Assembly (NCBI GenBank): GCA_964645585.1
Contig: CAZYAN010000007.1
Location: 6,297-70,296, forward strand
Length of the DNA: 64,000 bases
DNA from: an uncultured Opitutales bacterium
Lineage (GTDB): Bacteria > Verrucomicrobiota > Verrucomicrobiia > Opitutales > T3Sed10-336
Direction of reading: 5' to 3'
The notes under the pieces were generated by a model. It saw only the letters and a list, made by a program, of their open reading frames with translations, did no database searches and had not been told where the DNA came from. The number at the start of each line of letters is the position of its first letter. The stretch's first letter is position 1. A program made the position numbers and the translations under genes. Of this stretch, positions 31,701-47,822 are shown one piece after another.

Positions 31701-32537
31701 AACAACCCACCGGCCATCACCGCTGATTCGAGGGCGAAAGCTCGGTCCATTCGCATCGGTGCCGCCCATCGGAACACTGATTCGCTCAATCTCGCCGGTC
31801 CAGTGGTCCTTAACAAAGATGTCGTAGAAATTGTTTCCGATCACACCGATCGGGTTGTCATCGTCGTCGGTGATCGGTTCGCCGTTCTCGTCGAACTGAA
31901 TCCCGAGCAGAGTCGTGGAATCCGAAGCGAAGGCCACAAAACGGCCATCGTCGCTGATCGAAGCCTGCTCACTGTTGCGGTTTCCCTGAACTCCAGATTC
32001 GGCGACACTGATGAGTTCGGTTTCCGGGTGCGTCGCCGGCGCCAAGGTAATTCTCGCCGTCGCAACGTCTGACTCAAATGCCAGCCGGGATGGCGGCGTA
32101 GTCATTGCGGGCGTGGAGGTCGGGTGGCAGGTGGTAACTTCGGCGTTTACGAAAAACGTGCCAGGAAGATTGCCCGGCATCATTTGCGTCCAGGTGTGAA
32201 CAACGGTTTGTCCCGGCCCGATTGAACCGACCAGATAATGCAGCAAATGGTCGTTGCTGTCCCGCCAAACGGTATCGGGGGTCAGATGAACCTGGACATC
32301 GTAGCAAGCCGGATCCGCGTCCAGATCGGCGGTCGTATTCGTCACGGCGAGCATGATTGGAACCGGATCGCCTGGATAGTAGGTCCCCTCCTCCACTTCC
32401 AAGGCGGTAATGACGAGAAAGCCGCCAAATGCTTGCGGGACCGCCGCGAAACACACCATCGCCGCGCCGAGCAGCCATCGCGCGAAGGTTTTTTCCACAA
32501 TTGTTCGCCCCAAAAAGTTTAAGTGGTTTGCCATCAT
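25752..32537 (-). CDS. 2261-aa secreted giant protein. Order: CARDB-like domain, PD40/TolB-like repeats, seven copies of an unassigned ~110-130 aa module, more PD40 repeats, three Ig-like domains, a DUF4214-like region, then Trp-rich C-terminal repeats.
   Basis: Signal peptide WLLGAAMVCFAAVPQAFG. PD40-type motifs include ISGDGRWVVFHSDATNLVPGDSNGSTDVFLKD and ISADGRWIVFESEATNL. The C-terminus has GWIVHKEHDWLYF, GAWVWDNIQRDWLWT and RWIFY. The 6.8-kb frame is uninterrupted, with G/C-biased third codon positions. Confidence 0.9.
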   Translation of the reverse strand: MMANHLNFLGRTIVEKTFARWLLGAAMVCFAAVPQAFGGFLVITALEVEEGTYYPGDPVPIMLAVTNTTADLDADPACYDVQVHLTPDTVWRDSNDHLLHYLVGSIGPGQTVVHTWTQMMPGNLPGTFFVNAEVTTCHPTSTPAMTTPPSRLAFESDVATARITLAPATHPETELISVAESGVQGNRNSEQASISDDGRFVAFASDSTTLLGIQFDENGEPITDDDDNPIGVIGNNFYDIFVKDHWTGEIERISVPMGGTDANGPSFRPRISGDGRWVVFHSDATNLVPGDSNGSTDVFLKDRHTGSLRRVSVGINGAQGNQNSQNASISADGRWIVFESEATNLTGDDINGVADIFLYDAQAGKLVRRVNVTSDGMEARGGHSRFPRISANGRHITFESRATNLTSDSPTGLWEIYVHDRNANETYQTVLNENQEEVLVPVFDEPGGIATRRLSVSYDANGNVLFADGDSHASDLSHDGRYVVFHSEATQLSSKAAEGAILLPGRAAEATVSWNENTPGFGTITFASNDLATGAIGFLNNPVDGEIVEIRDGVNSARFEFDGPNPDGVGAGNIQVIITGDAGTTRDELLAAVNKAFGMVGEDPGTILATPADNIGVDGQAVGYAIVLTNLEFGPPAANQPINVVDAPNLVAEGMDGAGEPVARVESGDQLEIDHGRTAPVTIEFFASGDSDPTDVDSRIIGVQIGNTPKGTSKNLLEVFEGLGYHEFDADYMPALPDYLLPPLMVNPVHGTSYTFVRGEDEDDPDYVEATFVFVDEGPQFNPLNPQFVRIGLTPEETRGNLIRAINALGIPFAPLPATILADGTDYTFGLTYSDAPARGAVALKEVPEDGSSITISDGITTTTFRFDNERDLTDEEEDQGITQVPPFEIIGPGLARVYLINDITLAEITNRFIGAIQASYLDLAVSVGFSAELDRDAIILLNNRVGAFGNVPITINPLDEEEEDEEPPPPNTVLTEWADAYGMTGGDDGNPAFGDRLVFYPENLLHPAVVFEFVFDIADVSPDADFAVPLGFTGATTEGNLLAAIHRSGIPWLVAEGTDDVEDPTVRLRSIIGAADGTVSFNFHATNPDSFVALASVPGQVRNPFHRGRLTLDDGLNPPVTYEFTFDGSVSNEDFIPVDLAPVGALTRDNLINAINQTDHLAIRAEDASEPLEDVFGDDLLVVRLINTNRGVVGEIASGTGLGPLVIQTIDLGGWNPVPGDAFRLGDATGNSKIFQFVGPGYPDADPGNIAIPTPGASGDDRIAVRNAIVAAIKDSGLKIRVTEGVENGAPAVFLVQEIPGPAGNVPIVVLSENPSFTVRGMSGGAFLGNGFSQVYLVDRDSNGNGVFDEPGELRLELISITEGGLPGNESSMEPAISGDGKFVAFRTMANDLQPRTIVRSDGQVFPNRNDPLALESDEIVNFTDVDSFSDVYVRDRETGVNTRVSVNRFGENGVGGRVWIVQGAPRSSRGAAINFDGRYIAFESDEEPVITTHRGGKGDAQIILGGLAHTFTNRNPIDDNHRRDVFLHDRRFDTILEPLPGLVEVSLPDVVYDDDPLTVDTLTTGVPVDIIADVSGLEPGREVSLVAFFANGSLIDVATQPAIRHTNRFVARWAPPLPTTYHITAVAIDTRGRELPMSDVLEISATRTQGISPVIDVINPPIEDELVPDNAFVLTNRSLWPFVAGVASGNHTVAEVEFFIRELTPVEVEENTITGNLGGVSMGKAVAEPTADNVPASTWRLNFDFANSPLAPSGLPPGYYAVRAVSRDTQGNHFSSQALPILVMAGVFDRPTVRLTSNRREFNREEFTRFRAQVDSAQGQIDVNGEVWLFASGSFVDYPDFNNPDTERPYEWEGLALFTGVWNFYAVARDSTGNTSMSNVIQIVIHPSGHVVRNPADPNEHEAFISLAFDALLGDDVMPSTQLRRHYLRLLESGQWTRGHLIRELMTGYPEFQNVPWVIATYLTLTDSYPTRDELRDGLFTLDEGDEGGQDPEDEPDLGPSVPLFLPALVSEVLQSDTFLIKHRRRADVMTDEELLKAVYEGKTHPETQRRLTELRNEGRSGYFARITAEKFDGYLGLARRAAVILLMLNREVIPGEVNQLPDSIIAASNILFGRPDFTEQYSDSYLKPMFVPPSSVSTMYSQRSLWLGDYYDRHFNYAGDSGWIVHKEHDWLYFGPTSVVTDENGAVIGAWVWDNIQRDWLWTTPQNYSNYSPAGALLYSHNDQRWIFYRHGGTPAKRQFQWFNSAAGTWSPIYDVAR

Positions 32538-32753
32538 GTTCTTGTGTTATAAATTCTATCTGCGCCCGCGCGCCCCTCAAAGGAGCCTCCTCCTTTTTCC
32601 CGAAAAAGAAGAGCTTGTATTCCTCGTTGAAGCTTTTCGGCTGTCAACGCCTTTTTTGGGCCTCCGCCCCAAGCGCGACGTGCTGGACTGAGAGGATTCT
32701 GAAATGAGAAAGATTGGTTGATCGGACTCTGACAGGCCATAAGACAGGGAACG

Positions 32754-35700
32754 CTATTCGACATGCTGCACGCGCAGTCGGAGGAAGTAGCGTTCACCGC
32801 TGTGAGACGCTGCATGAGCGGGACGGAGTCGGACTTTCTGCAGGGTGCCTTCCGGTTCGCCCACGGCCAGGATGTCAGACTCGACTGCCGTCCAAGTGTT
32901 CAAATCAACTGAGGATTCGAGCTGATAATCGATCGCGGCGGAATCGAGCGGAATGTAAAACTCCAGCGCCGGAATCTGACTTCCTGTGGCGCCAGCCTCA
33001 GAGCCGCCATCCATCGCGATGCGAATGCTTGTCGGGTTCTCCATCACCAATTTCGGCAAGGCCGCAGCAGGATTCTCAAACCGGTCAAGCCCAAGCGCGT
33101 AGCGCAGAAGGACATTGGCAGAGCTGTCTGCTCCGGATGACAAGACGTATTCCTCGAAGGAGACAACCGGCGGAAGCACGGCGACAATGCCCGAGTGAGA
33201 AACAGCCTCGCCAGCGGTGTTCTCTACGATGACCGTGTAATTTCCTGCATCGGCCTCCTGCACATTCGAAAGAGACAGAGTCGGCCCGGTTTTTCCGGGA
33301 AGGGGAACGCCGTCCTTGTGCCATTGAGCGGCCACCGGGTAGGTGCCGACCCATTCCGCACGCAGCGTCACACTGCCGCCTGCGCGAGTAACAGCAGATT
33401 CCGGATGCAGCACGAATTCGGGCGCAACAATTTCGCCGTCCACCTGAATCGTCACCGGCAGGGTCTCAGCTATCCCGTGGCTGTTGCGAACATAACCGAC
33501 ATACATCCCGGCGTCGCTGTCCTGGATATTGTCTAAAGTCAGGGTCGCGCCGGGGATATACTTGTTTCCCTTCCTCCAGAAGTATTCCAGGCCAGGCCCC
33601 CGGGCCTGATAGTCGAGCGTGATGCTGTCGCCGCGGACAAAGGCGAGGGTTCCCCAATGCGATTGCCCCACAATCAACGGATGGACGGATTCGAAATTAA
33701 CCGCCCGCAATCGCAGAAGATCTTCGCCGACGCTGTTGCCGCTGTCCTTCTTGTAAATCCAGGTCAACTGATGCGTGCCGGCAGGCAGCTCATATTGTCT
33801 CGGAAGCCATCCGCTGGCGCCGGAAAGGGGGTCGCCTTGCAGGACTCCGTTGATCCGAAACTCGCCGAAATCGTAGTCCTTTTCCGAAGAAGCGTTCCAC
33901 TCAAACGTCAGCCTGCCGGGGCCGGTGACCATCGCGGCGAGTTCAGAAAATTCCCCGTGGCTGACAGCCCCGCTCCTGGCCCCGTTTTCGCCATCGGGCA
34001 CCCAGCCAGCTGCACCGCCGGTTTGCCAGGCAAGATACGGAGCGCCGAGCGCGGTGCCCAATGCACCGCCAATTTCACTCGGTGATACGTGCCGCACCTC
34101 ACCCATGGAAGTGCTTGTTCCAAAGGCGCTGGTTATTTCGAAGCGGTAATTCCCCGGTTGGGCGGCCTCGAAGTCGAAGGCGAGCGGACCGGTTGGATCG
34201 GTTGCCAAGGTGCCGGAGGAAGCCTCAACTCCATTGTAGAACCAGCGATAGGCATCGCCCGCGCTCAGACCGGAGTGGCTGACCTTTACCTGCAAGTGGA
34301 CGGGGCCGCCCATTACGATTTCAAGATTCTCGTCGAGCGGCTGATAAATGAGCGGTGCCGGATCCAAGGCACGCGCCAGGTTCGCGCGGCGGCCCTTCTG
34401 ACCCAAGCCCGCCAGTTGAGGCTCGACATCCGCCCGTTGGAGCAGGCGCTGGATGAGCACAAAATAGGGCTCATCCGGATATTCAGCCTTCAAGACGGCG
34501 TACAGCCCGGCGACGTGCGGCGAAGCCATTGAGGTTCCGCTGAGAATTGCATACGTGTCGATACCGAACGCATAGGTAGAAACGATGTCGGTGCCGGGTG
34601 CGAAGATTTGCACGTTCTCGCGACCGTAATTGCTCCCGATGTCGACATCGATCACGGGATCCCATGGCAAAAAGGGAATCAGGCGGAACCTTTGCCAGAT
34701 CGAACGGTTGCCGCTGGGCTCCATGGAGCCGACATTGACAATATTGTCGGTCAGGTTCTGATAGCTGGGCGGATAATCGGGATAGATGTCGACATCCTCG
34801 CTCTCATTGCCGGCAGCAGTTACAAAGATGGCACCGGCGTTCCGCGAGCGCTGGATCGCGCTGCTCAGGGCATTTGAGGGCCCCATCCCTCCAAACCAGC
34901 GACCATAGGCGTCGAATCCCCAACTGTTGTTGAGAATGTGCGCCCCGTTCTGCCAGGCGTAATCGATACCTGGAATCGAGTCAGAGAGAACCCCGCCGCC
35001 AAAAGCATTGAGGAATTGGATCGCCATGATTTTGACATCCCAGGCGACACCGGCGACACCGACACTGTTGTTGCCGATCGCTCCGATCGTACCGGCGACG
35101 TGCGTGCCGTGGCCGTTGAGGTCCATTGGGTCGCCGTCGCGGTATTCCAGGCTGATCCCGTGGATGTCATCGACATAGCCATTGCCATCGTCATCGTGGA
35201 AGTTTCCCGAGGTCTCATTGGGATTGATCCACATGTTTTCCACGAGATCGACATGCCGGTAATTCACGCCGGAATCGAGAACTGCGACGATGACGTAGTT
35301 TTTCTTCCCGACCTTTCCCGGCTCCGCTGCACCGCGCCAGAAACCGGCGCCAGGAGTGAGCTCTAAATTCTCTTCGGAAACCCCATTCGCGAGCTGGCGC
35401 TGGCGTTGCAGCTCAATCTGTTTTGCCCAGCCATCGACGGCTTTAATATCCTTGCCGGGTACTCCGCCAGCTTGCCCGGTGTTCCGCATGCCCCACAGCA
35501 TATCAAAAAGCGGATCGTTCGGAATCGGCTCATGCGATCGGGCGGCAACGACGAAATCCGGTTCGGCGTATTCGACCCAGGCGAGGTCGCGCGAGAGGGT
35601 ATCGACAACCTCCGAAACCTGATCCGCCTGCTCCAGTTCAAAACCGAGAACATAAAGGCCGTCAGCACCCACCTCACGGCGAATGGTGAAACCGCGCTCA

Positions 35701-36239
35701 GAGAGTGCATCCTGCCAATTCGCCGGTGCGCGATCCGTATCGATCTGAGCGAGAACATGGTCCGCAACCATCGACCGGTACCCGATCACTTCTTCCTCGC
35801 CGGATTTTGGATTCGGGTGGAGAAGTTCAACTGTTTGCAGCAGCGGGTAATGAAAGTCGGTTTTCAGAACGCGCGCCCTGCGGATCCCGTCCGGTCCCGG
35901 TGTCTCCCGCTCAAACAAAACCTGATCAACTTGTGAAATGCCCGCTGGCAGCCTCGCCAACTCCACACCCGAAAAATTCTTGGGAATGACCCTCCGCGGA
36001 CGGACAATATTTTCCGGCTGATCAACCTGCTCGGCGAGATCCGGCACGTCTGCCTCGACATACTCGGCATCAGCCAAAGCCCGCATCCGATCTTCACGCG
36101 TCGGCTTCCGCACGTCGCTTGCGGCACCCGGAACTTCCGCGACCGGCTCCTCGCGCGCCCGGTCTTTTTCGCCCCAATTCAGCAGGAAGGCAAGAGAGAG
36201 GATCAGGGGAACCGTGAGGAGGAATATCCGTTTCTTCAT
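32754..36239 (-). CDS. 1161-aa secreted subtilisin-like (S8) serine protease with C-terminal Ig-like (I-set type) domains and the shared CTD.
   Basis: Catalytic Asp in VAVLDSGV (35274-35276), His in HGTHVAGTIG (35109-35111) and Ser in SGTSMASPHVAG (34530-34532). Ig motifs LTLDNIQDSDAGMYVGYV and LSLSNVQEADAGNYTVIV. The CTD reads NVLLRYALG...SSVDLNTW...RYFLRLRV. The start is trimmed to MKKRIFLL (36239). Confidence 0.92.
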   Translation of the reverse strand: MKKRIFLLTVPLILSLAFLLNWGEKDRAREEPVAEVPGAASDVRKPTREDRMRALADAEYVEADVPDLAEQVDQPENIVRPRRVIPKNFSGVELARLPAGISQVDQVLFERETPGPDGIRRARVLKTDFHYPLLQTVELLHPNPKSGEEEVIGYRSMVADHVLAQIDTDRAPANWQDALSERGFTIRREVGADGLYVLGFELEQADQVSEVVDTLSRDLAWVEYAEPDFVVAARSHEPIPNDPLFDMLWGMRNTGQAGGVPGKDIKAVDGWAKQIELQRQRQLANGVSEENLELTPGAGFWRGAAEPGKVGKKNYVIVAVLDSGVNYRHVDLVENMWINPNETSGNFHDDDGNGYVDDIHGISLEYRDGDPMDLNGHGTHVAGTIGAIGNNSVGVAGVAWDVKIMAIQFLNAFGGGVLSDSIPGIDYAWQNGAHILNNSWGFDAYGRWFGGMGPSNALSSAIQRSRNAGAIFVTAAGNESEDVDIYPDYPPSYQNLTDNIVNVGSMEPSGNRSIWQRFRLIPFLPWDPVIDVDIGSNYGRENVQIFAPGTDIVSTYAFGIDTYAILSGTSMASPHVAGLYAVLKAEYPDEPYFVLIQRLLQRADVEPQLAGLGQKGRRANLARALDPAPLIYQPLDENLEIVMGGPVHLQVKVSHSGLSAGDAYRWFYNGVEASSGTLATDPTGPLAFDFEAAQPGNYRFEITSAFGTSTSMGEVRHVSPSEIGGALGTALGAPYLAWQTGGAAGWVPDGENGARSGAVSHGEFSELAAMVTGPGRLTFEWNASSEKDYDFGEFRINGVLQGDPLSGASGWLPRQYELPAGTHQLTWIYKKDSGNSVGEDLLRLRAVNFESVHPLIVGQSHWGTLAFVRGDSITLDYQARGPGLEYFWRKGNKYIPGATLTLDNIQDSDAGMYVGYVRNSHGIAETLPVTIQVDGEIVAPEFVLHPESAVTRAGGSVTLRAEWVGTYPVAAQWHKDGVPLPGKTGPTLSLSNVQEADAGNYTVIVENTAGEAVSHSGIVAVLPPVVSFEEYVLSSGADSSANVLLRYALGLDRFENPAAALPKLVMENPTSIRIAMDGGSEAGATGSQIPALEFYIPLDSAAIDYQLESSVDLNTWTAVESDILAVGEPEGTLQKVRLRPAHAASHSGERYFLRLRVQHVE

Positions 36240-36497
36240 ACGACAGGACAACGTTCCGGAACGGCTGGCCGACACCACGCCGACTCGACCGCACACGGGC
36301 CATTGATGTTGGTTAAGAAAAACTGCAAATGGTTAGTATAAAATGTGTTACAGGACAGCAAATGGCGGCTGCCAACAGGGCCCTGCGAATTGCTGCCCAT
36401 AACGCCCAAGAAAAACTCGGGTGTCAAGAGTTTGCTCGGAAAATTTCCCGCCTCGATCGCCTCTCATTGGCTTATGTATGCGGAAAGAAAACGGGTT

Positions 36498-36538
36498 AAA
36501 GCAAAAAGCTCCGGCGGATTTTTCTCCTCCGCCGGAGC
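36498..36538 (-). terminator. Rho-independent terminator after the 1893-aa gene
   Basis: Perfect 11-bp stem GCTCCGGCGGA / TCCGCCGGAGC (36508-36518 / 36528-36538) with a 9-nt loop. On the minus strand it is followed by TTTTTGCTTT. It begins 20 nt after the stop codon. Confidence 0.72.
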
Positions 36539-36558
36539 CCTTGTCTACAGCAAAACGA

Positions 36559-39500
36559 TCACTCGACCACCTCGACTCGCAGTCGCAGGAAACGCTGGCC
36601 GCCGCCCTCGTCGAGCGTCACTCCGTCCCGCGCGACGACCGTCTCCAAATTGCCATTTGCCGTTACGTCAATGCTTCCGCCGCCCGATTCGATCGGTTTC
36701 CAGTCAATCAAGTTTGATGAAGCCTCGACGATATAGAAAACGTCTTGCCTGCTCGTTGGCCGAATGTATTCCAACGCCAAGAAGGGCTGAGGTTCCCACA
36801 GCACCTCCATACGCGGTGTATGACCAATCGAGTCAGGACCGTCGATCCCGAGGGCGTAGCGCAGAAGATTCGGCAATCCCGTTCCATCCGGATCGGCATC
36901 GGGGCCGCTTACGTCAGGATCGACGGTTTGTTCAGGCGAATACCGCTGAGCCACCCACGTTGCATAGTTTGCCGGATCCGACACAGTCACGGTGCCGTTC
37001 TCCCCGACAGCCGCAAAACGGGTTCCATCAAATACGACATCCAGCAAGGCAGGCGGGACGGGCGAACCCGTGCCGAGGTCAACCCGGGATGAAGTCCAGT
37101 CCACTCCATTCGCGGAGACCGCGACTTCTCCCCAGGTTCCGACGGCGACCCATGATCCGCCCCCAAAGGCAACGCCGTGCAGAATGCTCGGAATATTTGT
37201 TCCGCTAAGAGTCCAATTAATGCCGTCCGTCGAGGTCAGGATGCGCGCGCTGTCGCTTCCCTCGGCCCAGCGGCCGCCTGCCGCTACGAACCGCCCGTTC
37301 GCATAGGTGACGTCGTATAGCGGCGCGGAGGTTCCCGCTGCTTGAGGGGTCCAATGCTCGCCGTCGATCGAAGTCAAAATGGTGCCGTTGTCACCGACGG
37401 CAACAAATTGAACTCCGCCTCCCCCGCCCGGGCGATGGGCGACAGCGTTCAGGTTCTCCGCCGTGCCGGACGCGCGATTCTCCCAGACGATTCCTAGAGC
37501 GTCCGGATTCGAACTGTCGCGGGAAATGCGGATGACTCCCGCCCGTCCCACGGCAACAAAGAGTTTTCGTCCGGAAGCTTCACCATACGTGACCCCGAGG
37601 AGCCGGCGAGGTGTTCCCGATGGCACAGCTTGCCAGCTCAGGCCATCGTCATCGCTATAGACGATCCTCGCGTGATTATCGTCACCCGTCGCGATATCCC
37701 CGACCGCGATGGTGATGCCATCGCCATACGCCACGGAGCGCAAGGACTCCTCCGAAGCGGAACCGCCGCCGGACCAGTCAAAGCCGTCGCTCGAGCGTCG
37801 GACAGCCCCGGCGTCACCGACCGCAACGAGGCGGGACCCGGCCTTGGTGACCCCGTTCAAATCAAATGCTCCCGCTGCTTGCGGTTGCCAGATAAACTCC
37901 TGCGGGATTGGCGCCGGAACGACGAGAACGGCAACGGCGGGCACCGGCAGATATTCCAGAACTTCCGCGTCCCACACCCGAGCCGTGATCGTATGGAGAC
38001 CGAGTGTTGAAGGCGTCCATTGCACCGCATAAGGCGCGTTCAGATCGGTCGCAAGGAAGGTTCCATCGACGGCAAATTCCACCCAGCCGATCGATACCGC
38101 CCCCGCGACAACTTCCAGCTCTATCGAGGTGGGCTGGTCGAGATCGACGCTTTCCGATACATCGAGCCGGAAAACCGCTCGCCCAACGTCCACGCGCCGC
38201 GAATCGGAAACATCGAAGTTCCCCGCCGCGTCAGTACCAACCGCGTACAAGGTCCAGATGCCCGGTGACGGCAGCTGGCCTTCCCACATCCAGCGTTTCC
38301 CTGGCTGGAAATCGCCCACGAGCATGGTCATCGGTCCGATCGGTTCTCCATTCCCGAACAAGACAACACCCTGCATCGGAGGAATCGGATCCAGGATTTC
38401 CACCTCCACCCGAACCGTCTCCGTGAGAGACATCGCGGATTTGCTCGCGGAAAAATTCACCAGTTGCGGACGGTCGGAGGCGGCGGGCGCGACGCTGATC
38501 ACCACTGGATCGGACCGCCCGATGTTGCCATTTTCGTCGCGCGCGACCGCTGTGACCGAATAGGCACCCGGCGGAACACGAGGAACAAAAGGCGCCGCCG
38601 CGCCGAGTGCCGCAAGGTCGTTCAGGTCGAACTCGATCTGAAAGAACTCTTGCCCTGACACCCCTCGCACCGCTCCCATAGAGAGACCTAATCCGGTCCC
38701 CCCTGCTGGGTCCATGAAGAACTCGACGGTATGAATCTCGCTTTCAAGCGAGGTCGCGTGTGCGACGAAGGGCCATTCAGACCGGTTCGTTAGCTGGAAA
38801 CCAGACGCGGGATCAATGATCCTGACAACTGGATTCACTCCCGCACTTGTTGCCGCGGCGGTAACGCGCGTCACATTCGACAGCCGTGACCGAAGATCGT
38901 TTGAATCGACCGCGATCGCCGCGATTGTGTACGTCTTGGGGTTCGGATTCCCCGGAAGGACGGGTATAGTCCAATTCAGGATATACTGGCCCCAGAAGTC
39001 CACCTGCCCCGCGGGAACGACCCCCGCAAGCTCGTTGTTTACGTAAAACTCAACCCTCTGGATGCTTCCGACAGTGGTGCTTGCCCGGGCGGCCAGCTGC
39101 ATCCGCTGGCCCGCAACAGCCTTCAGGGTGTCAGGCATGAGCAGCGAAACTATTGGCAGATCTTCCGGGAAAGTGAGGCCCCTCTTTAGATCGAACAGGT
39201 AAATATCAGTATTCGTGCCGTTCGTCGCCGAGTATATATAATTGGTCGCCCCGAAAATCAGGCCATGGTGTCCTTTTCCGTCACTGCTGAACGCGATAAA
39301 GCGGCCGTCCGGACTGATGGCCGGGCGCCGGCTCACGGTCGGATAGCTGCTCACCGTGCCAGCCTGATAAGTGAACGGATTGGTTCCGAAACCAAAACTG
39401 CTCACGGAGGCTCGATGAATCACAGGCGCCTGGAGGTCGTCGGTAAACTCATAAAGGTAAACATCGGCGGCGCCATTGTGGTCCTCGTAATTGTATACCT

Positions 39501-42240
39501 CGGCCGACAAGGATACGGTGAGGTCCAAGTTGTGAACCGGAATCGGCGGCAGAAGATTGCTTGCTTCGCTGGTATACGCGATCAGCTGTCCGTCATCCGA
39601 GATGCTTGGCTCATAAGAACCGAGATCGAGTGCAAACTCGGATAACTCGGGGAACATCGGGCCCGGCTCTGTGCCCAGCGCCGTGTTTAAACGCGCGATC
39701 TGCGTAACTTCGCCACCCGCGATGCGGGCACGAAACACGTGCGGAATCGGTATTTCATATGTGTCCATCTCCGGATCCGTCATATTTTGCGCCCGCGAGG
39801 CGAAGGCGATATAGGATCCGTCTCCGCTGATCGCCGGGTACCCGCTATGGTTGTCACCGAAAATCGACGGGGCGCCAAAGGCGATAGAAACCACGACAAA
39901 CTCTTCTTTGCCGCGCTCCCAGCGAACGATCTGGTCAAACGGAGAGGAACCCCCGAGAATAGCAGGGTCGCGGGTAACAAAGGTCACGAAGTTTCCGTCA
40001 CTGGAAATCCGGGGCGTCGACGACGGCCAGATCGAGGGTTCGCCCCCGGCCTTGCTCACAAGAGTGATGGCCGTATTTCCCGGCAGATCGAATATTTTCG
40101 TATCCGCGACATCGCGATCGATCAGAAAAACCCGCCGAACCCCTGGAGACAGCGGTTCTCCCTCCATGAGGTTTGTCGCGGTCGATTCAAACACGACGAA
40201 CCGGCCGTCCGCGCTGATGCGAGGCAGCTGACTCCCGTGGTTGGGCTCCGCGCCGGTGCGAGGGTTCAGAGAGAGCCGGGTCGTTGTTCCCTCCTGCCGG
40301 TCGCGGACAAAGATATCTGAGTAGCCGTTGCTGTCGTTAGCCACCAGGTTGCTCGCGTTTGACTGGAAGACAATATAGCGTCCATCCGCCGAAATCGCGG
40401 GATTCGCACTGTGACCATTTGCCGGACCGGCCAGGCCTACAGAAACCAGACTTGTAGCCTCGCCGACCACGTTTCGGAGGAAGATATTGCGGACATTGGA
40501 ATCAACTCCGTTCGCAAGCTCGCCAAAACTGTCGAATGCCACGTACCGGCCGTCCGCCGAAACAACGGCGTTATCGCTCGGCCCGTCCGATTCGTCTCCG
40601 TCGCTGGAGAGACTTGCACGAACGGTTTCGGTTCCCTGATGAGGCAGAATCGTCAAGCGCTGGCCAACCGTGGCGACCGTCGTATTGTTGCCCCAAACCG
40701 ATTCGTCGCGGCCTTCAGGCTCGAAACCCGTGCCATCGGGCCCGCCCGCGGAATTGATCCGGGCGAGAAGGTAATAGGTGCCTTCAAAATTCTGCGGGAG
40801 CATCATCGCGCCTTCCACATCGATCTGCTGACCGGGAAGGAGCCGGTTGCTCAAACCGTTTCCGGAATACGACTGTTCCCAGACCAGAAAGTCGTCTTCG
40901 TTTCCATATTCAGGATCGGCGGAAAGGTGAATTTGCAGTTTGTATCGCTGATTATGCGCGACGGACGATGCTGGATTCTCCGTGTTTATATGCACCGTGT
41001 TATTCGCGAACGCCGCACGAAATTGAATCGCGTCTCCGCCGCGGTACGTTCCGTTCGGATAAATAATTCCGCGTATGGCAAGATCGGGAGTTGTATCGAT
41101 AGTGAAATCAAGATCCTCCTGTTCCTCCGTGCTGTAGCCAGGAAGGATCTCGAGCCTGTAGGCGGCGCCATTCCCCATTAAATTTTGGGGGAACTGAAAG
41201 CTGGTGAACAAGTCACCGGAGTCCTCATCTCCAGCCAAGCCCGGATGCTGCTCGATCCACTCGAGAATGATCCTGTCATTGTTGCCTCGATCCACCAGTC
41301 GAAAGAGCGTGTCAATCGGAGCCGGCGGCGGCGCATCATCCTCATCCTCCTCGTTGTTCAAGCGATAACGCACGCGGCGGGTGGAACCAGGGAATTCCGG
41401 TGCGCTCCCGACTAACTCAACGCGATCAATGCTGATTTCCGCCGAGTTTGTCCCCGCCGGAATGATCGAAAAGGGTACGGAAGCTTCCGTAAACGTCTCT
41501 CCGTCCAGGGATGCCAAAATAATTTCATCATCCCCGATATCGATGAATGTCAGCTGAGCTGACTGTGGATTCTGGTGCATGTAGTCACTTATGCCGCCGA
41601 AGCCTATTTCAACCGCCGTCGGCTCAAGAAGACCGTTTGATGATTCCAAGAGGACGAATCCGCGAAAACCGGCAGCCACCGTCACAAGGTCGGCATTAAG
41701 AGCGCTCACGCGCGCCATGACTGGGCGGTTAACCAAGATGTCGTGTGCCGACAGCGCCTGGTCGCCACCGACATAGGTCACTCGGAAACCAGCGGGATCG
41801 ATGGAAAAATATCCAGAGGCATTGTCCGTTACGAGGTTTCCATCGGTCACGCGAAACCGCATGATCCCGGTTCCCGCGTAAAACGGAATCACCTCGACAA
41901 ACTCCGCGACGCCATCGAGGAATTGGTCGGCCGGCACGTCCACCGTCACGACCTGGCCGAACTGTCCGTGGAGTTCCAGTGTCACGTCGCGATTGAACGC
42001 CGTGTACGGCTCGTCAATTGGCGCACCTGCCTCGAAGACCGCGACCCGCACCTCGAACGGCTGCCCCGCGACGATCGGCACCGGAGACTCGCTCAACGGA
42101 TCATTGGTGCCTCCCTGGGTGACGCGAAAGTGATGCGTCTGTCCGACAGCCGTACTCGTTGTCACGAGGCCAAGTAGAGGAACAACAGCCCGGAGCAATG
42201 CTTTTCGAAAGGAAATTCGAAGTAGGTTTCGTAAAAACAT
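36559..42240 (-). CDS. 1893-aa secreted giant protein. Order: Ig-like and CARDB-like domains, an extended PD40/TolB-like repeat array, three Ig-like domains, a ~7-blade beta-propeller, then the shared CTD.
   Basis: Signal peptide LLRAVVPLLGLVTTSTAVG. PD40 motifs VSADGRYVAFDS, ISADGRYIVFQSNASNLVANDSNGYSDIFVRD and ISADGRFVVFESTATNL. Propeller blades such as FVAVGDNGTILTSIDGEHW. The CTD reads LPNLLRYALGID...ASSNLIDW...QRFLRLRVEVVE. Confidence 0.9.
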   Translation of the reverse strand: MFLRNLLRISFRKALLRAVVPLLGLVTTSTAVGQTHHFRVTQGGTNDPLSESPVPIVAGQPFEVRVAVFEAGAPIDEPYTAFNRDVTLELHGQFGQVVTVDVPADQFLDGVAEFVEVIPFYAGTGIMRFRVTDGNLVTDNASGYFSIDPAGFRVTYVGGDQALSAHDILVNRPVMARVSALNADLVTVAAGFRGFVLLESSNGLLEPTAVEIGFGGISDYMHQNPQSAQLTFIDIGDDEIILASLDGETFTEASVPFSIIPAGTNSAEISIDRVELVGSAPEFPGSTRRVRYRLNNEEDEDDAPPPAPIDTLFRLVDRGNNDRIILEWIEQHPGLAGDEDSGDLFTSFQFPQNLMGNGAAYRLEILPGYSTEEQEDLDFTIDTTPDLAIRGIIYPNGTYRGGDAIQFRAAFANNTVHINTENPASSVAHNQRYKLQIHLSADPEYGNEDDFLVWEQSYSGNGLSNRLLPGQQIDVEGAMMLPQNFEGTYYLLARINSAGGPDGTGFEPEGRDESVWGNNTTVATVGQRLTILPHQGTETVRASLSSDGDESDGPSDNAVVSADGRYVAFDSFGELANGVDSNVRNIFLRNVVGEATSLVSVGLAGPANGHSANPAISADGRYIVFQSNASNLVANDSNGYSDIFVRDRQEGTTTRLSLNPRTGAEPNHGSQLPRISADGRFVVFESTATNLMEGEPLSPGVRRVFLIDRDVADTKIFDLPGNTAITLVSKAGGEPSIWPSSTPRISSDGNFVTFVTRDPAILGGSSPFDQIVRWERGKEEFVVVSIAFGAPSIFGDNHSGYPAISGDGSYIAFASRAQNMTDPEMDTYEIPIPHVFRARIAGGEVTQIARLNTALGTEPGPMFPELSEFALDLGSYEPSISDDGQLIAYTSEASNLLPPIPVHNLDLTVSLSAEVYNYEDHNGAADVYLYEFTDDLQAPVIHRASVSSFGFGTNPFTYQAGTVSSYPTVSRRPAISPDGRFIAFSSDGKGHHGLIFGATNYIYSATNGTNTDIYLFDLKRGLTFPEDLPIVSLLMPDTLKAVAGQRMQLAARASTTVGSIQRVEFYVNNELAGVVPAGQVDFWGQYILNWTIPVLPGNPNPKTYTIAAIAVDSNDLRSRLSNVTRVTAAATSAGVNPVVRIIDPASGFQLTNRSEWPFVAHATSLESEIHTVEFFMDPAGGTGLGLSMGAVRGVSGQEFFQIEFDLNDLAALGAAAPFVPRVPPGAYSVTAVARDENGNIGRSDPVVISVAPAASDRPQLVNFSASKSAMSLTETVRVEVEILDPIPPMQGVVLFGNGEPIGPMTMLVGDFQPGKRWMWEGQLPSPGIWTLYAVGTDAAGNFDVSDSRRVDVGRAVFRLDVSESVDLDQPTSIELEVVAGAVSIGWVEFAVDGTFLATDLNAPYAVQWTPSTLGLHTITARVWDAEVLEYLPVPAVAVLVVPAPIPQEFIWQPQAAGAFDLNGVTKAGSRLVAVGDAGAVRRSSDGFDWSGGGSASEESLRSVAYGDGITIAVGDIATGDDNHARIVYSDDDGLSWQAVPSGTPRRLLGVTYGEASGRKLFVAVGRAGVIRISRDSSNPDALGIVWENRASGTAENLNAVAHRPGGGGGVQFVAVGDNGTILTSIDGEHWTPQAAGTSAPLYDVTYANGRFVAAGGRWAEGSDSARILTSTDGINWTLSGTNIPSILHGVAFGGGSWVAVGTWGEVAVSANGVDWTSSRVDLGTGSPVPPALLDVVFDGTRFAAVGENGTVTVSDPANYATWVAQRYSPEQTVDPDVSGPDADPDGTGLPNLLRYALGIDGPDSIGHTPRMEVLWEPQPFLALEYIRPTSRQDVFYIVEASSNLIDWKPIESGGGSIDVTANGNLETVVARDGVTLDEGGGQRFLRLRVEVVE

Positions 42241-42314
42241 AGATGGTTATGGTGTGAGAGACTTTTCTGTCGGTTCTTATTACTGAATTTTTAAATGGTG
42301 GGGATTGCGAGGAG

Positions 42315-45300
42315 TCACTGCGGCCCGGTCAGATCGATCTTAAGGCGGATGAAGCGACGGGCGGCGGCGGGCTCGTGCCGATCGTCGACTGTCACCTCCC
42401 GGAAGTTCTCCTCCTCGACCAGCGCGACAACCGCCTCCTCGCCGAGCGGGGTCCAATCAACCAAATCGCTCGAGACTTGGGGCTTCACCTGAATGTCGTC
42501 CGGATGAAGGGATTGCCGATAGATCAATCCAAGCCGGTTGTCCGCCGTCCGGATCATTCTCGGAAGGGCTTCGATAGAAACCGGCTCCCGCGGATCGATG
42601 CCGAAAGCATAGCGCTCGAGGTTCGTCGTAGTACCATCAACGGCCGCTTCCGGCAGCACGCGGCCTGGATCCTCGATCTCGTTCGCGTTCAGCCCTCGGC
42701 CAACCCATTCACCGTAAGAGCTGGCGATCCCGCCGGGTTGTGTCGTCCAAACCTGTCCGGATTCGCCGAACGCGGTTAGCAGGCCCTCGTGATCAACAAC
42801 TCCAAAGAAGGCGAGCAGCGTTTCCGTGATCGACGAGGTCCAGCGAACACCGTCGTAGGAGCCGAGAATTGTCCCCCGGTCGCCCGTCACGATAAATGAC
42901 TGATCGACAAAGGCGGCACCGCGCAGGATCTCGCTCCGGCTCTGGGGCTGCCAGCTTTCCCCGTCAAAGGAAAGAAGAATAATTCCTTCGGTGACGTTAT
43001 CATGCACAACGCGTCCGCCCACAGCGACAAACGTGCCCTTTCCAAATGCAATCCCCCGCAAAGCGATCGTTGTCTGAGCTGATTGCGCCGTCCAATCGGT
43101 TCCATTCTCCGAGGTGAGAATCATTCCCGCCTGGCCCACCGCGATCCACCTGCCCAGGCCATAGCTCAGATCCCACAAGGTGTTGTTGGTATCCGGGGAA
43201 TTGGCCCGGTGCCAAACGGTTCCGTCGAGCGAATACAGGATGATTCCCTGATCGCCGACAGCGTGAAAGAGACCGTTATACCAGCGGACCGACCGCAGAT
43301 GACTGTTCGTACCGCTCGGAATTTCCTGCCACAGAATCCCGTCCGCGGACCAAGCAGCCTGACCGGCGTCGCCCACGGCCACATAAACTCCATTGCCGTA
43401 GGACAGTCCGCGAACCGTGAATGGAACCGGCTGATTTGCCCAATCGCCGGTTTCCGCGTCAAAGATCCAGATTCCTTCCACGCCACCGAATACCACACCA
43501 GCTTCGCCGCCAACGCCGGCGTAGAGATTGCCGGACCCGATTACGGCAGAATCGGTCGCCTCCATCGGCGTTCTCCCGATAACCTCAGCGTAACCTCTGC
43601 CGACCGCTTCATTTCCGGCGCCATCCATTGCCCGAACCTCCACAGAATGTTTCCCTGGTATGTTCAGGAAGTGCTTGAATGCCTGACCGAAGCCGATGGC
43701 ACCATCCAAGGGGGCTCCGTTGATCCTGTATTGCACCTCAACTGCCTCCCACGAGGTCGCGTTTGTCTGAGCTTCGACCGTGATCTCACCGCTCGACAAC
43801 AGGATCCGCGGTTCAACCTGAACCAAGATCACCGGCTCTTGCACAGACACCGGGATCAGTCGCGACGCGACGGTGCCGCTTTCTCCAGTCACCGCAGCCC
43901 GAAATTCATACGTCCCCGGATGCACCGGGTTCCACGCGGCTGTGAACGGCGCTTCATCGACTCTCGAAAATACCTCGCCATTCAGCCAGTATTCGACGCC
44001 AGAAATCGTTTCATCAGACGATACCAGGAGATCCACGCTCTCCCCGAGGGTTATCGAAGGCGGTGACACAGTGAATTCAAAAAAGAATTCTTCCGCCTCC
44101 ACGACAGAGATCATCCGAGTTGTCGAAACTTCGATGCCGTCGACCATAGCCACAGCGCCGATTTCGTATTCGCCGGGCACCATTGGCCTCCACACGACTG
44201 GCTCGGCGGCATCGGCGGGCTCCTCGAGCACCTCGCCGTTGATCGAGTATTTAAGAGAAGTCACATAGTCGCCAGTGGTCGCGATCAACAGATCGGCAGC
44301 GCCGCCAAGAACAACCACTTCGGGTGTGACTTCGATATCGAATTCAGCCACTTCCCCGGAAAAGACCCGAACGTCAATCGACCGCGTTCGAATGAGGATT
44401 TCATCAGCATCAAACGCGGTCGCATAGACCTCAAACAGACCGCTCTCCTCCGGAATCCATGTCATCGCAAGGCTGGCATCCAGCATTCCAGCCGATTCCC
44501 CGCCAATAAAAATCTCGCCGGGCTCGAGCGGACCGTCGCCCTCGGCGCGCTGCACCGAAAAGTTAATCGGCTCGCCCAAAAACACCTCCGCCGGCTCTGC
44601 CGCCAATACGATCTCGGGCTCGACAAAACGAACCAGCACCGGATCGGAGTAAACGATGTTGCCCGCCTCATTTTTCACCGCGGAACGAAGCTCCATCCGG
44701 GCGTCTGGCCATCCCGTCGCCGGGATCGACAGCTCGTAGATTCCGTCGCCAACCTCTTCCGGTATTCCGACGGAGTCGCCGTCGAGCAAAAGATCGACAC
44801 TGGCAACAGGGCTCGCGGTCGCGTTCGCGCTCATCCGCACGGTCACCGTTCCTGCCGCCAGCAGCCGGACTTCGCCCTCAGGGTTCTCCGTGGAATATGG
44901 CGGTTCGGGACTGAGAACGCTGGTCGAAAGCTGACCCCGAGTGACGACCACATCAACATAAGCATTCGTTCCGGTTCCGCCCCGGCGAGCCGCTGTGAGA
45001 ATCAATTCGTTCTCCTGATCGACGTAGCTCTCACCGACACGCAGAGGAGCCTCCTCCGCCGACGACTCAGGCCACAAATCAGGGTTCAGATTGAGGAGAT
45101 GGCTTCCGCGGTCGGTTCCCGGAGCGTCGCCCCATTGAACAACCACCCCGTCCATCGCCCGCTCCGAGGATGTAAACAGCTGGCGGAAATCCACCCAATA
45201 GTCCTTTAGCGGCGGCAACATGCTGTGGTTCTCGGTCAGGATGCGCAGCGAATACACGCGGCCCGGAACCTTCGCCGCGCCGCCGTCCAGCCGGAACAGA

Positions 45301-46844
45301 CGATAGCTGCCGGGTTCGGTACCGGGGCCGATCTCGGCGATATCTTCCGTGGTCAACCACTGAATAAGATGCTTAAAATTCCCGCTGTAATGGTTGTTCG
45401 GAAAATTATCCGACACTCCCATCACATCGAAGACATTTCCATATTCGATGAAACGCGCGTTCTCGACGGGGTACGTCCCCGCGCTCTGGGGCCCAACAGG
45501 CGCCCAGTAGCCCGAATGATGCAAACCAAAGTTGTGCCCCAGTTCATGAGCGATGACGCCGGGATGGAAAATCCCCTGAATCCAGGCCTCCCCCCGTCCG
45601 AGTCCCCCCAAACCAGCCCAATCAAATCCGATATCAGGAAACGCGACGAGAACGAAGTCGTATTCCGATTCATATCCCAAACCTTGGGCCGCGGTTACCG
45701 CATCCCTCAACAGTGTGAGGTATCCAGGCTCGTCCTCTCCATCCGCCAAATAGGCCGCGGCAGTACCTGGCATCCGCAATGGCTGTCCTGCGGTAACGTG
45801 GATCTGCCGAAAGCGGAACTGTCGATACGACGCCTCTTGAAGAAACCGGCTTACCTGTTCCATGACAGTGTACGCCGCGGATTCCGAAACCGGCGGATCC
45901 GGCGGAATTGTCGGCTCCTCAGGCTCCTCAGGCTCGTCGGGGTCGTCGGGTTCTTCAGGCTCCGCAAACTCAACGCGGACCACCAAAATCGTCTTCTCGC
46001 CCAAACTGCTGTAAGTCGCGGTCTCGTGATTCAGCGGCTGACGGTTCACCGGATCGTCCGTAAACGCCAAGTAGTGGGCGGCGCAGCAGAACTCAATGAT
46101 TCCGCGGGCTGTTTCGGCAACGACAGGATTTGCATCCGCCGCCTCGTGCTCGCCCATCTCAGGAGGACAAGGGATGGATGGACCGCCAAGAGCCTCGATC
46201 TCACGCGCGCCCAGAATCCGTGCGGGACTCTCGGCAACCGCCAAATCGCGTTCGATAGCGATTCCATGCGCAAAGATATTATCACTCACCGGCACGCCCA
46301 GCCACTCTCCGGATACATAGGCGTCGTAATGTTGCCCATTGATCTTGAAATCACGCTGCACCAAACGCTCCGGCACTTCCCCGTTCAGCTTTGGCACGAC
46401 GCCGGACACGTACAAATCGCCACGGCCGCTCACCGTCTTTTCCAAATATGGATGGATCTCCGGGGGCAGCTCCTCGCGAAGATCCGCCGGCAGCGCGCGC
46501 GCGATCGCCTCTCGAGGATTTTCGCGGATCAGCATCTTCATGACAGTCTGACGCTCTTTTGCCGCCTCGATTCCTTGCTGGATCATAGCGGCATCTGCCG
46601 GGGAAGAACTCGCTGAGCGATAGCGGTCGATCCATTTATGGAAAGCGGCATGGGGATCGGGATCGTGTTGCGAAACGTCAACTCGCGCAAAATCGGCACC
46701 ATTGTTCGCGAGCTCGTGGATGACGAGTGACTCCGGTTCCGCGCGCGAATCCAGAGGCGTCAAATTTTGCGATTCCCGGGTAAGCCAGACAAAGCTGAAC
46801 AGAGCCGATAATAGGGTGACAACCAAAAGCAGTCGCTTCTTCAT
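42315..46844 (-). CDS. 1509-aa secreted zinc metalloprotease (metzincin, reprolysin-like motif) fused to tandem Ig-like domains, a ~7-blade beta-propeller and the shared CTD.
   Basis: HELGHNFGLHH (HExxHxxGxxH) at 45516-45548. N-terminal signal or anchor MKKRLLLVVTLLSALFSFVWL. About six Ig-like units, for example EYWLNGEVF...TYEFRAAV. Propeller blades such as WIAVGQAGMILTSENGTDW. The CTD reads TNLERYAFGIDP...VSSDLVDW...RRFIRLKI. The start is trimmed to ATG 46844. Confidence 0.9.
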   Translation of the reverse strand: MKKRLLLVVTLLSALFSFVWLTRESQNLTPLDSRAEPESLVIHELANNGADFARVDVSQHDPDPHAAFHKWIDRYRSASSSPADAAMIQQGIEAAKERQTVMKMLIRENPREAIARALPADLREELPPEIHPYLEKTVSGRGDLYVSGVVPKLNGEVPERLVQRDFKINGQHYDAYVSGEWLGVPVSDNIFAHGIAIERDLAVAESPARILGAREIEALGGPSIPCPPEMGEHEAADANPVVAETARGIIEFCCAAHYLAFTDDPVNRQPLNHETATYSSLGEKTILVVRVEFAEPEEPDDPDEPEEPEEPTIPPDPPVSESAAYTVMEQVSRFLQEASYRQFRFRQIHVTAGQPLRMPGTAAAYLADGEDEPGYLTLLRDAVTAAQGLGYESEYDFVLVAFPDIGFDWAGLGGLGRGEAWIQGIFHPGVIAHELGHNFGLHHSGYWAPVGPQSAGTYPVENARFIEYGNVFDVMGVSDNFPNNHYSGNFKHLIQWLTTEDIAEIGPGTEPGSYRLFRLDGGAAKVPGRVYSLRILTENHSMLPPLKDYWVDFRQLFTSSERAMDGVVVQWGDAPGTDRGSHLLNLNPDLWPESSAEEAPLRVGESYVDQENELILTAARRGGTGTNAYVDVVVTRGQLSTSVLSPEPPYSTENPEGEVRLLAAGTVTVRMSANATASPVASVDLLLDGDSVGIPEEVGDGIYELSIPATGWPDARMELRSAVKNEAGNIVYSDPVLVRFVEPEIVLAAEPAEVFLGEPINFSVQRAEGDGPLEPGEIFIGGESAGMLDASLAMTWIPEESGLFEVYATAFDADEILIRTRSIDVRVFSGEVAEFDIEVTPEVVVLGGAADLLIATTGDYVTSLKYSINGEVLEEPADAAEPVVWRPMVPGEYEIGAVAMVDGIEVSTTRMISVVEAEEFFFEFTVSPPSITLGESVDLLVSSDETISGVEYWLNGEVFSRVDEAPFTAAWNPVHPGTYEFRAAVTGESGTVASRLIPVSVQEPVILVQVEPRILLSSGEITVEAQTNATSWEAVEVQYRINGAPLDGAIGFGQAFKHFLNIPGKHSVEVRAMDGAGNEAVGRGYAEVIGRTPMEATDSAVIGSGNLYAGVGGEAGVVFGGVEGIWIFDAETGDWANQPVPFTVRGLSYGNGVYVAVGDAGQAAWSADGILWQEIPSGTNSHLRSVRWYNGLFHAVGDQGIILYSLDGTVWHRANSPDTNNTLWDLSYGLGRWIAVGQAGMILTSENGTDWTAQSAQTTIALRGIAFGKGTFVAVGGRVVHDNVTEGIILLSFDGESWQPQSRSEILRGAAFVDQSFIVTGDRGTILGSYDGVRWTSSITETLLAFFGVVDHEGLLTAFGESGQVWTTQPGGIASSYGEWVGRGLNANEIEDPGRVLPEAAVDGTTTNLERYAFGIDPREPVSIEALPRMIRTADNRLGLIYRQSLHPDDIQVKPQVSSDLVDWTPLGEEAVVALVEEENFREVTVDDRHEPAAARRFIRLKIDLTGPQ

Positions 46845-46944
46845 CGCGTGTAGTGGGTTCAACAAGTGCTGATTGAATGCCCGCCGGACAGAATGGATTC
46901 GGAACGCCGGTTTTGCCCTGAATATGGTATTTGCATGCAGGCTC

Positions 46945-47202
46945 CTAGGGCTGCGGATGCTCCTTTCCGCCGGCGGCACGTGCTTCTGTTTCGTCGCTGC
47001 CTTGGCTCGATGGATTCACAGATTCAGGCTGCGAATTCAGATCGTCGAAGATCAACTGGTTCACGTAAGCCGACAAACTCATGCGCCGGGATGCCGCTTG
47101 CTCCTTGGCGGCTTTGAGTAAGGGCAGCTCAAAGCTGATTCCTTGGGTAGCTCGGCTGGGTTCGGGCTTCATGGTTGCGCCATAGTTGCCAACTGTTGTC
47201 AT
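46945..47202 (-). CDS. Small ribbon-helix-helix (CopG/Arc-like) DNA-binding protein, first gene upstream of the giant-protein block.
   Basis: GISFELPLLKAAKEQAASRRMSLSAYVNQLIFDDL fits a beta-strand/helix/helix RHH pattern. It is paralogous to the divergent ORF 47254..47514. An alternative start is ATG 47172. Confidence 0.6.
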   Translation of the reverse strand: MTTVGNYGATMKPEPSRATQGISFELPLLKAAKEQAASRRMSLSAYVNQLIFDDLNSQPESVNPSSQGSDETEARAAGGKEHPQP

Positions 47203-47204
47203 CG

Positions 47205-47224
47205 CTTGCAAGCCCTTCTTGCAA
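47205..47224. promoter_or_regulatory. Candidate operator or -35 elements: two TTGCAA palindromic hexamers 13 bp apart in the divergent RHH intergenic region.
   Basis: CTTGCAAG at 47205-47212 and CTTGCAA at 47218-47224, lying between the two divergently transcribed RHH genes. Confidence 0.3.
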
Positions 47225-47253
47225 AAATTTAGAAAAAATACTTTCCTTTCCAC

Positions 47254-47514
47254 GTGGCGCGGAAAAAGAAGACGACACACGGGGTTTCGTTCCCCGATCC
47301 AGAACTGCTCACGGCCGCGAAAGCGAAGGCCGCCTCGATGCAGATCAGCTTTTCAACCTACATCAACCAGCTTGTCCGAAGGGATCTCGGCTGGAAAGGT
47401 GTCCATGACTGGGTGGAGCCGCAGGCACCCTTGCCGCCGTCCGAACACCGGCAGAAATCAGGACGTTTCAAGGAGCCGGCTCCGATTGTCCGTCGGAAAG
47501 CTCATCCAGAATAA
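47254..47514 (+). CDS. Small ribbon-helix-helix (CopG/Arc-like) DNA-binding protein, paralog of 46945..47202.
   Basis: GVSFPDPELLTAAKAKAASMQISFSTYINQLVRRDL aligns with the minus-strand RHH with about 19 identities over 36 positions and one gap. GTG start. Confidence 0.6.
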   Translation: MARKKKTTHGVSFPDPELLTAAKAKAASMQISFSTYINQLVRRDLGWKGVHDWVEPQAPLPPSEHRQKSGRFKEPAPIVRRKAHPE

Positions 47515-47734
47515 GGGCGCAGGTCGTCTCCGGATGGTGGCGCAGCGGCGGGGATATTCCATACTCGCGGAAGACTTTCCGGTGGTCCTCCAGTTCATCG
47601 AGCAAGGTCAATGCGATCTCTCGCAATTGTATATTCGTCGCCCGCGCAATCGCCCGGCGATAGAAAAAGGAACAATGAAAACGGGGTTCCGGGTTATCAG
47701 GTTCTCTAAGCGGCAACTTCAGGGGTTCAATCAT
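47468..47734 (-). CDS. Hypothetical 88-aa protein (weak call)
   Basis: ORF starting MIEPLKLPL. No motif was recognised. Third codon positions appear less G/C-biased by eye than in neighbouring genes. Its 3' end overlaps the plus-strand RHH gene by 47 nt. Confidence 0.28.
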   Translation of the reverse strand: MIEPLKLPLREPDNPEPRFHCSFFYRRAIARATNIQLREIALTLLDELEDHRKVFREYGISPPLRHHPETTCALILDELSDGQSEPAP

Positions 47735-47822
47735 AGAAGACGGATTACAAGGAATAGCTGGAGGTAAAACAAATATAAATTCTGCCCCTCGCAAAATTTA
47801 TTGCTTCTGGGCTTTTCCCTCG

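Follow-up and report, generated by a model that had tools for sequence, protein, structure and literature searches.

Mnt of Salmonella phage P22 represses arc and ant in the immI region, where Arc represses mnt together with its own operon (PMC11016777). There, and by prediction at the locus described here as well, two paralogues of the ribbon-helix-helix (RHH) fold are transcribed from a short shared control region, mnt divergently from arc-ant, and an Arc-like gene heads its operon. In the CI/Cro switches of temperate phages, a maintenance-repressor promoter and an early-operon promoter likewise diverge over overlapping operators. The locus in question lies in a stretch of 64,000 nt from an uncultured Opitutales bacterium (assembly GCA_964645585.1, contig CAZYAN010000007.1, positions 6,297 to 70,296), called the window below and numbered from its first letter. 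It consists of two small divergent genes, A and B, and the spacer between them; A is the first gene of a minus-strand string that runs on into genes for giant secreted proteins (the island). Taken whole, A and B are read as an RHH two-repressor switch on back-to-back promoters that would gate A and the island, and this reading is regarded as modestly probable. Such a switch is most likely of the phage type and an ordinary kind of regulator; to judge from the settings of its relatives, the A/B module appears to be a chromosomal copy of a two-gene switch found at the borders of prophages and integrative elements in other Verrucomicrobia. Coordinates are collected in Table 1.

Both open reading frames (ORFs), with the peptides quoted in the original prediction, were located in the sequence, and codon comparison indicates that A and B are real, conserved genes under protein-level constraint. 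Against six relatives (ca. 25–38% nucleotide difference), the core of A carried 14–21 synonymous vs 5–13 non-synonymous codon differences; the core of B, 13–21 vs 12–14. Close homologues are scarce among 5.8 billion proteins: n = 7 for A (P0005–P0011) and n = 4 for B (P0001–P0004). The minus-strand ORF of A in its longest form covers 46945–47280, and its start was called differently by gene callers (75, 85 and 107 aa versions). The start was placed at the ATG at 47172 (MKPEPSR...), the point at which six homologues begin; longer forms (GTG or MTTVGN; 85 and 111 aa) were rejected, the relatives beginning at the MKPEP-equivalent ATG and the stretch upstream of it differing by a 1-nt indel among them. 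The GTG start of B is invariant in 7/7 close relatives. The ATG at 47172 and the GTG at 47254 leave 81 bp between the start codons, against an earlier estimate of ca. 50–80 bp.

By sequence comparison, A and B are paralogues, as first proposed: BLASTP gave 21/40 identities with one gap (E 6e-8), spanning the predicted strand-helix-helix core, and the tails outside the core are unrelated; hhalign of the A-type against the B-type subtype profile gave 99% probability (E 4e-18). B carries a basic N-terminal arm ARKKKTTHGVSFPD, a segment ...ISFSTYINQLVRRDLG-GV-DW and a tail HRxKxGRFKEP.

The RHH fold of both proteins is a well-supported prediction. In the AlphaFold2 (AF2) model of A, residues 1–15 are extended, helices lie at 16–28 and 33–47, and the tail is disordered; predicted local distance difference test (pLDDT) values of the core, 84–95. 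The model of B has helices at 16–28 and 33–45 and is of lower confidence (core pLDDT 71–86); its tail is likewise predicted to be disordered. DSSP did not assign the N-terminal strand in either monomer model, as is to be expected, since the RHH ribbon, an antiparallel β-ribbon that enters the major groove in sequence-specific binding, forms only in the dimer; the modelled topology, an N-terminal strand region and two helices, is that which the RHH superfamily (Pfam clan Met_repress; Arc/MetJ/CopG fold) requires within ca. 45 residues. When A was searched against the PDB with Foldseek, ranks 1–40 were RHH proteins (Arc, StnY, MatP, CopG, VapB12, CdbA, AmrZ, NikA, PutA), the best with a root-mean-square deviation (rmsd) of 0.9–1.4 Å across 35–38 residues; Arc was superposed on the A model with an rmsd of 1.0 Å over 36 residues and a target-normalised TM-score of 0.80. 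For B, the top 15 were nearly all RHH proteins (RHH antitoxins, CdbA, Arc, AvtR, CopG).

Searched with a profile, 1.84 billion cluster representatives yielded 249 relatives at E ≤ 1e-3; these share the pattern x-T-x-G-[IV]-S-F-(P)-x3-L-x2-A-K-x-R-A-x5-S-[LF]-S-x-Y-[VI]-x2-L-I-x2-D-L. The A type is marked by QGISFE and RR[QM]S[LF]SAY; the B type by a KKK-T-[FH]-G-[IV]-S-[FW]-P-[DN] arm and an [RK]DLG..GVF segment past helix 2. With an 87-sequence family profile, Arc was matched over the whole core at E 0.0024 and VapB12 at E 0.028; Arc of P22 is both the best sequence match and the best PDB structural match. Among the 87 members, 26 gave sub-threshold or weak matches to DUF6364 (PF19891), and 15 matches to named RHH families (RHH_5, FitA-like_RHH, NikA-like, Arc, RHH_1) were obtained at E ≤ 0.01. 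DUF6364 and RHH_5, FitA-like_RHH, NikA-like and RHH_1 share size and topology with A and B, but the sequence matches of A and B to named RHH families stay below the curated cut-offs: for DUF6364 (gathering cut-off, 27.3 bits) A scored 13.3 bits (E 0.12) and B gave no match; PF03869 (Arc) was matched by neither, and by 2/87 family members at E ~1e-3. A search of the literature available found no paper on DUF6364, and no function could therefore be transferred from it. PHROG and PADLOC scans of A, B and the neighbouring gene C gave nothing significant.

The divergent pair, which was to be sought in relatives, was present in every related locus fetched (tblastn), with start codons 72–95 bp apart. 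The close clade, made up of metagenome-assembled genomes of Opitutales, comprises the window, L001, L002, L003–8, L009–11, L017, L022 and L023. The distant group consists of L014, L015, L018 (with two pairs), L021 and L025. Degenerate-pattern scans gave one locus from GTDB genomes and two from JGI metagenomes, and a viral-contig scan with the subtype alignments recovered one prophage contig. In that IMG/VR contig the pair lies at the very edge, with ParB-like and exonuclease genes behind A; its B protein has a RefSeq entry from Opitutaceae bacterium TAV1, and the contig is a TAV1 prophage. In L015, the stop of A overlaps the start of a gene for a Phage_pRha + P63C protein, matching PHROG families for Rha-like regulators and for the anti-repressor Ant; the A operon runs straight into a Rha/Ant-like gene, as arc does into the antirepressor gene of immI. 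The L018 contig carries a phage-type integrase and a second, more divergent pair (6510–6797, minus strand; 6865–7101, plus strand) ca. 1 kb from the first, so one element can carry two modules. In L020, a B-type gene (26–268, minus strand) and an A-type gene (2415–2630, plus strand) stand ca. 2.1 kb apart, separated by an IS110-family transposase gene and a ParB-like gene, and an insertion may have split the module. The border arrangement in prophages and integrative elements is B, spacer, A and then early genes. The idea of a switch dedicated to the island was not borne out, since the same module heads prophage or integrative-element genes elsewhere.

The A–B spacer is conserved like coding DNA: 76–80% column identity at a length of 78–82 bp in seven close relatives. 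The best operator candidate in it, on sequence grounds, is the 11-bp palindrome AGTTGCCAACT (O1), not the TTGCAA hexamers. Across the close relatives O1 takes the palindromic form AT[AT]GTTG[CG]CAA[CT], and its core GTTGNCAA is invariant in 7/7. The form AGTTGSSAACT was confined to A–B spacers across all loci fetched, including the distant L014, L015 and L025; in L014 and L025 two copies are present, one before each gene. GTTGC/GCAAC occurs 25 times in 901 bp of A–B spacers vs ca. 3 expected (ca. 8-fold). In the window, AGTTNNNAACT was found twice vs 0.27 expected, and the other occurrence (10268) has a different centre; GTTGSCAAC is also present at 49718, under long ORFs on both strands, and this copy was treated as a chance occurrence and not as a further operator. 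A weaker candidate site, O2, may adjoin O1: its left half GTTGCG (47174–47179) matches O1, the centres of O1 and O2 are 11 bp (one helical turn) apart, and GTTGCG is kept in 5/7 close relatives. The distant L015 has the same arrangement (GTTGCG, N4–6, GTTGSCAAC).

The two TTGCAA repeats lie where the original prediction had placed them, CTTGCAAG at 47205–47212 and CTTGCAA at 47218–47224, 13 bp apart from start to start; the two also form a 7-nt inverted repeat. They had been offered as operator half-sites and/or shared −35 boxes, and of these readings the latter is favoured. CTTGCAA is not enriched in the whole window (8 strand-hits vs 6.5 expected), with 3/8 of the hits inside the same 20-bp stretch of the spacer; conservation is a stronger test than window-wide counts. 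GCAAG (47208–47212) and TTCTTG (47216–47221) are invariant in 7/7 close relatives. The first hexamer is TTGCAA in 4/7, CTGCAA in 2/7 and CCGCAA in 1/7; the second, TTGCAA in 3/7 and TTGCAT, TTGAAA or TTGATA in the other four; distant loci have TTGACA, TTGACG, TTGCAT, TTGAAA or TTGCGG at these positions. Read outward, TTG is invariant on each strand in the close relatives. An operator role was rejected, the second copy not being kept and both copies varying towards TTGACA in distant loci; back-to-back −35 boxes are the better reading of the hexamers, because TTG is constant and positions 4–6 drift around TTGACA, unlike those of a palindromic operator.

The predicted promoter of A (P_A) has its −35 box at the centre of a 10-bp palindrome, GCTTGCAAGC (47204–47213), and the CTTGC of this box (minus strand) is invariant in 7/7 relatives. 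In distant loci, TTGACA, TTGACG, TTGCAT or TTGCAA stands at this position, 17–18 nt upstream of an AAC(T/A)(T/A)T-type hexamer, and this hexamer or a near variant was present in every locus; the layout TTGnnn-N17/18-AACWWT-N5–9-ATG was found in the window, L001, L002, L014, L015, L018, L021 and L025. For the predicted promoter of B (P_B), the −10 position reads TACTGT, TAGCGT, TATTGT, TACGGT, TACGGT and TAGGCT in relatives, and in the close clade the GTG of B stands 6–9 nt past the TAnnnT hexamer; five relatives have a −35/−10 spacer of 16 nt, L003 one of 15 nt and the window one of 14 nt. These distances suggest that the A and B mRNAs are leaderless or nearly so.

In the window, the P_B spacer (47225–47238) shows a 2-bp deletion relative to the five relatives, beside the invariant A6 tract. 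The shortened spacer might mean weaker B expression here and a bias towards island expression.

Behind A, four giant genes (25752..46844, minus strand) follow consecutively over ca. 21 kb and co-directionally with it. That A runs in the direction of the metzincin-like giant and 100 nt upstream of it was confirmed (stop codon of A, 46945–46947; ATG of the giant, 46844, MKKRLLL...). In the close clade, A is always followed by same-strand genes for giant secreted proteins. The metzincin-like giant stands behind A in L002, L003–8 and L009–11, at 36–48% identity; L001 lacks it, and there the PD40 giant comes directly behind A, with the S8 peptidase next; the order of the giant genes is partly shuffled between relatives. 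The spacer from A to the next gene has 31% column identity and ranges from 5 nt (L017) to ca. 170 nt (L016); in the window, a terminator scan found no terminator-like site in it and its folding is no stabler than that of shuffled sequence (z = +1.2), and Rfam gave no match on 46500–48000. A and the giant genes probably form one operon. The tight conservation of the A–B spacer, against none in the A–giant spacer, favours P_A as a conserved promoter that serves A together with its downstream genes; the giant genes would then be the probable cargo of P_A.

From these features we infer promoter assignments, a pairing of protein and site, co-transcription with the giants, autoregulation, switch behaviour and island control, in the following form. 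B would be expressed from P_B, and A with the downstream giant genes from P_A. P_A would be occluded, and A and the giant secreted-protein genes shut off, by one RHH dimer, or by two on adjacent sites, bound at 47173–47194. B is a candidate for the maintenance repressor and would correspond to Mnt or CI; A, as the first product of the regulated operon, would correspond to Arc or Cro and is the candidate feedback repressor or counter-repressor. Several observations weigh against this scheme. A strict generic sigma-70 scan found no promoter in the spacer; the −10 hexamers predicted here are weak, and the window leaves only 14 nt for the P_B spacer; in the clade of the window, the operator copy has no counterpart on the B side; and the giants could have a promoter of their own in the 100-nt gap. 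On the protein side, A and B alone reached no Pfam or NCBIfam cut-off, and every Foldseek E-value for them was above 0.1, no single match being significant, because the RHH domain is very short; what counts for the fold is the agreement among the matches, not any one of them. In addition, A and B may be unable to tell sites apart, so that a simple split of roles after Mnt and Arc might be mistaken: the predicted DNA-facing strand residues T, G and S, aligned by profile to Q9, N11 and R13 of Arc, are identical in both.

This identity makes competition for one operator, or heterodimers, a live alternative. A and B would then act as one unit, by heterodimerisation or by competition for one operator, and the A:B ratio would set the output in a titration or anti-repressor-like manner. 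Family-wide, both subtypes have the strand motif G-[IV]-S-F, with a threonine two positions ahead of it, and the phage-type loci L014 and L025 have the same 13-bp operator before both genes; but the residue before the glycine differs by subtype (Q in A; H or F in B), the N-terminal arm is acidic and proline-bearing in A and KKK in B, and a one-residue insertion before helix 1 separates the subtypes, differences that could give distinct affinities or sites. One-unit action is rated as quite unlikely. It is unlikely too, to a lesser degree, that A and B regulate only themselves and each other, as the remnant of an integrated element, the giants being served by their own promoter in the 100-nt gap. 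Such a promoter would have room in several relatives (A–giant spacer 100–170 nt), and elsewhere the same module is followed by quite different genes; against this, A stands directly upstream of and co-directional with the island genes in every close relative, though the giant has diverged to 36–48% identity, L017 leaves 5 nt between A and the next gene, and the gap holds no conserved element or terminator.

Type II RHH antitoxins (VapB, ParD, FitA, MazE-mt10) resemble A and B in fold, size and disordered C-terminal tail, and the near structures include the RHH antitoxins VapB12, MazE-mt10, Rv0298 and CopA_SO, but those antitoxins have a cognate toxin gene in the same operon, and none was found at any A/B locus. 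In the window, B is followed by the convergent gene C and A by the giants, with no toxin-like partner by Pfam, NCBIfam or PADLOC, in agreement with what had been noticed at the outset; no toxin-like gene stands behind either protein in ca. 12 independent loci, and the conserved partner is the other RHH gene. It is therefore very unlikely that A and B are orphan antitoxins or what is left of a type II toxin-antitoxin pair. That A and B are chance ORFs, or a 5' untranslated region without protein product, is hardly credible: both are short and the start of A is variously called, but the synonymous excess contradicts it, as do the 249 family representatives and the confidently predicted core of A.

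For the two-repressor switch, the closest functional analogue would be Mnt/Arc, even with the failed PF03869 match. Arc acts as two dimers on adjacent sites, to which the proposed occupancy of 47173–47194 is likened. The differences from immI are that its operator sequences are unrelated to O1 and O2; that it has an antirepressor gene behind arc, in place of which the window has a chromosomal string, ca. 21 kb long, of genes for giant secreted proteins; and that Mnt has a C-terminal helical tetramerisation domain, which B, with its disordered tail, lacks. CI/Cro switches are found at a prophage border or early region, as are the pairs of L018 and L025. The lambda cI mRNA from P_RM is leaderless, as is predicted for A and B. 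CI and Cro are helix-turn-helix proteins, whereas A and B are both RHH proteins and show no sign of a RecA-cleavable or peptidase domain.

What is new here is modest: an uncharacterised RHH family with two subtypes that travel as a divergent pair, shared between prophage borders and a chromosomal giant-exoprotein island, which it heads. Current understanding is not overturned, RHH repressors and two-repressor switches being well known. If the model holds, an opaque giant-protein island of an uncultured Opitutales bacterium has a compact 81-bp control region with an 11-bp palindrome, the rare Mnt/Arc design has a second, independent case common to prophages and a chromosomal operon, and relatives of the uncharacterised DUF6364 gain a functional context. 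A more far-reaching version, doubtful at present, is that a prophage-derived two-RHH switch was domesticated by the Opitutales lineage as a bistable (phase-variable-like) control of the ca. 21-kb operon, which encodes giant secreted proteases and proteins resembling adhesins; if true, the cost of the exoproteins would be borne by part of the population only, and the A/B subtypes would be a previously undescribed, widespread paired-repressor family, to the extent of its 249 cluster representatives.

Table 1. Position and character of the A/B module, its predicted control elements and the adjoining genes in the window.
Feature	Coordinates	Strand	Description
Gene A	46945..47172	−	75 aa; RHH protein of A subtype; motif RATQGISFELP...RRMSLSAYVNQLIFDDL
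Gene B	47254..47514	+	86 aa; RHH protein of B subtype; GTG start
Divergent control region	47173..47253		81 bp between the A and B start codons
Candidate operator O1	47184..47194		11-bp palindrome AGTTGCCAACT (AGTT-N3-AACT); overlaps predicted −10 of P_A
Candidate weaker operator O2	47173..47183		GGTTGCGCCAT; imperfect; abuts the ATG of A
Predicted −10 of P_A	47182..47187	−	AACTAT; 18-nt spacer from −35; 9 nt before ATG
Predicted −35 of P_A	47206..47211	−	TTGCAA; first hexamer
Predicted −35 of P_B	47219..47224	+	TTGCAA; second hexamer
A-tract	47233..47238		AAAAAA; within P_B spacer; invariant in 7/7 relatives
Predicted −10 of P_B	47239..47244	+	TACTTT (pattern TAnnnT); 9 nt before GTG
Metzincin-like giant	42315–46844	−	1509 aa; HExxH motif, Big_7 (Pfam)
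Giant gene	36559–42240	−	1893 aa; PD40, Big_7 (Pfam)
Giant gene	32754–36296	−	1180 aa; S8 peptidase with Ig domains (Pfam)
Giant gene	25752–32537	−	2261 aa; PD40 (Pfam)
Gene C	47468..47737	−	89-aa orphan; convergent with B; 47-nt overlap with the 3' end of B

A free-standing gene of 154–182 aa was found between A and the giant in L003 (1529–1993) and L017 (534–1076), the L017 copy with a signal-peptide-like N-terminus. Its homology to the N-terminal region of the metzincin-like giant of the window (E 4e-8) led to its rejection as a toxin.

A terminator-like minus-strand hairpin at the start of B (47267–47245) was rejected, not being conserved in seven relatives (RNAalifold consensus −0.34 kcal/mol, without supporting covariation). 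An imperfect palindrome at 47242–47265 round the GTG of B had been flagged as that hairpin; it is probably fortuitous.

Gene C gave no Pfam, NCBIfam, PHROG or PADLOC match, and only five homologues were found in 5.8 billion proteins, the named ones all from Opitutales. It travels with A and B in the close clade, at 74–79% identity in L001, L002, L009–11 and L022 (tblastn); the convergent, overlapping B and C transcripts could have antisense effects on B.

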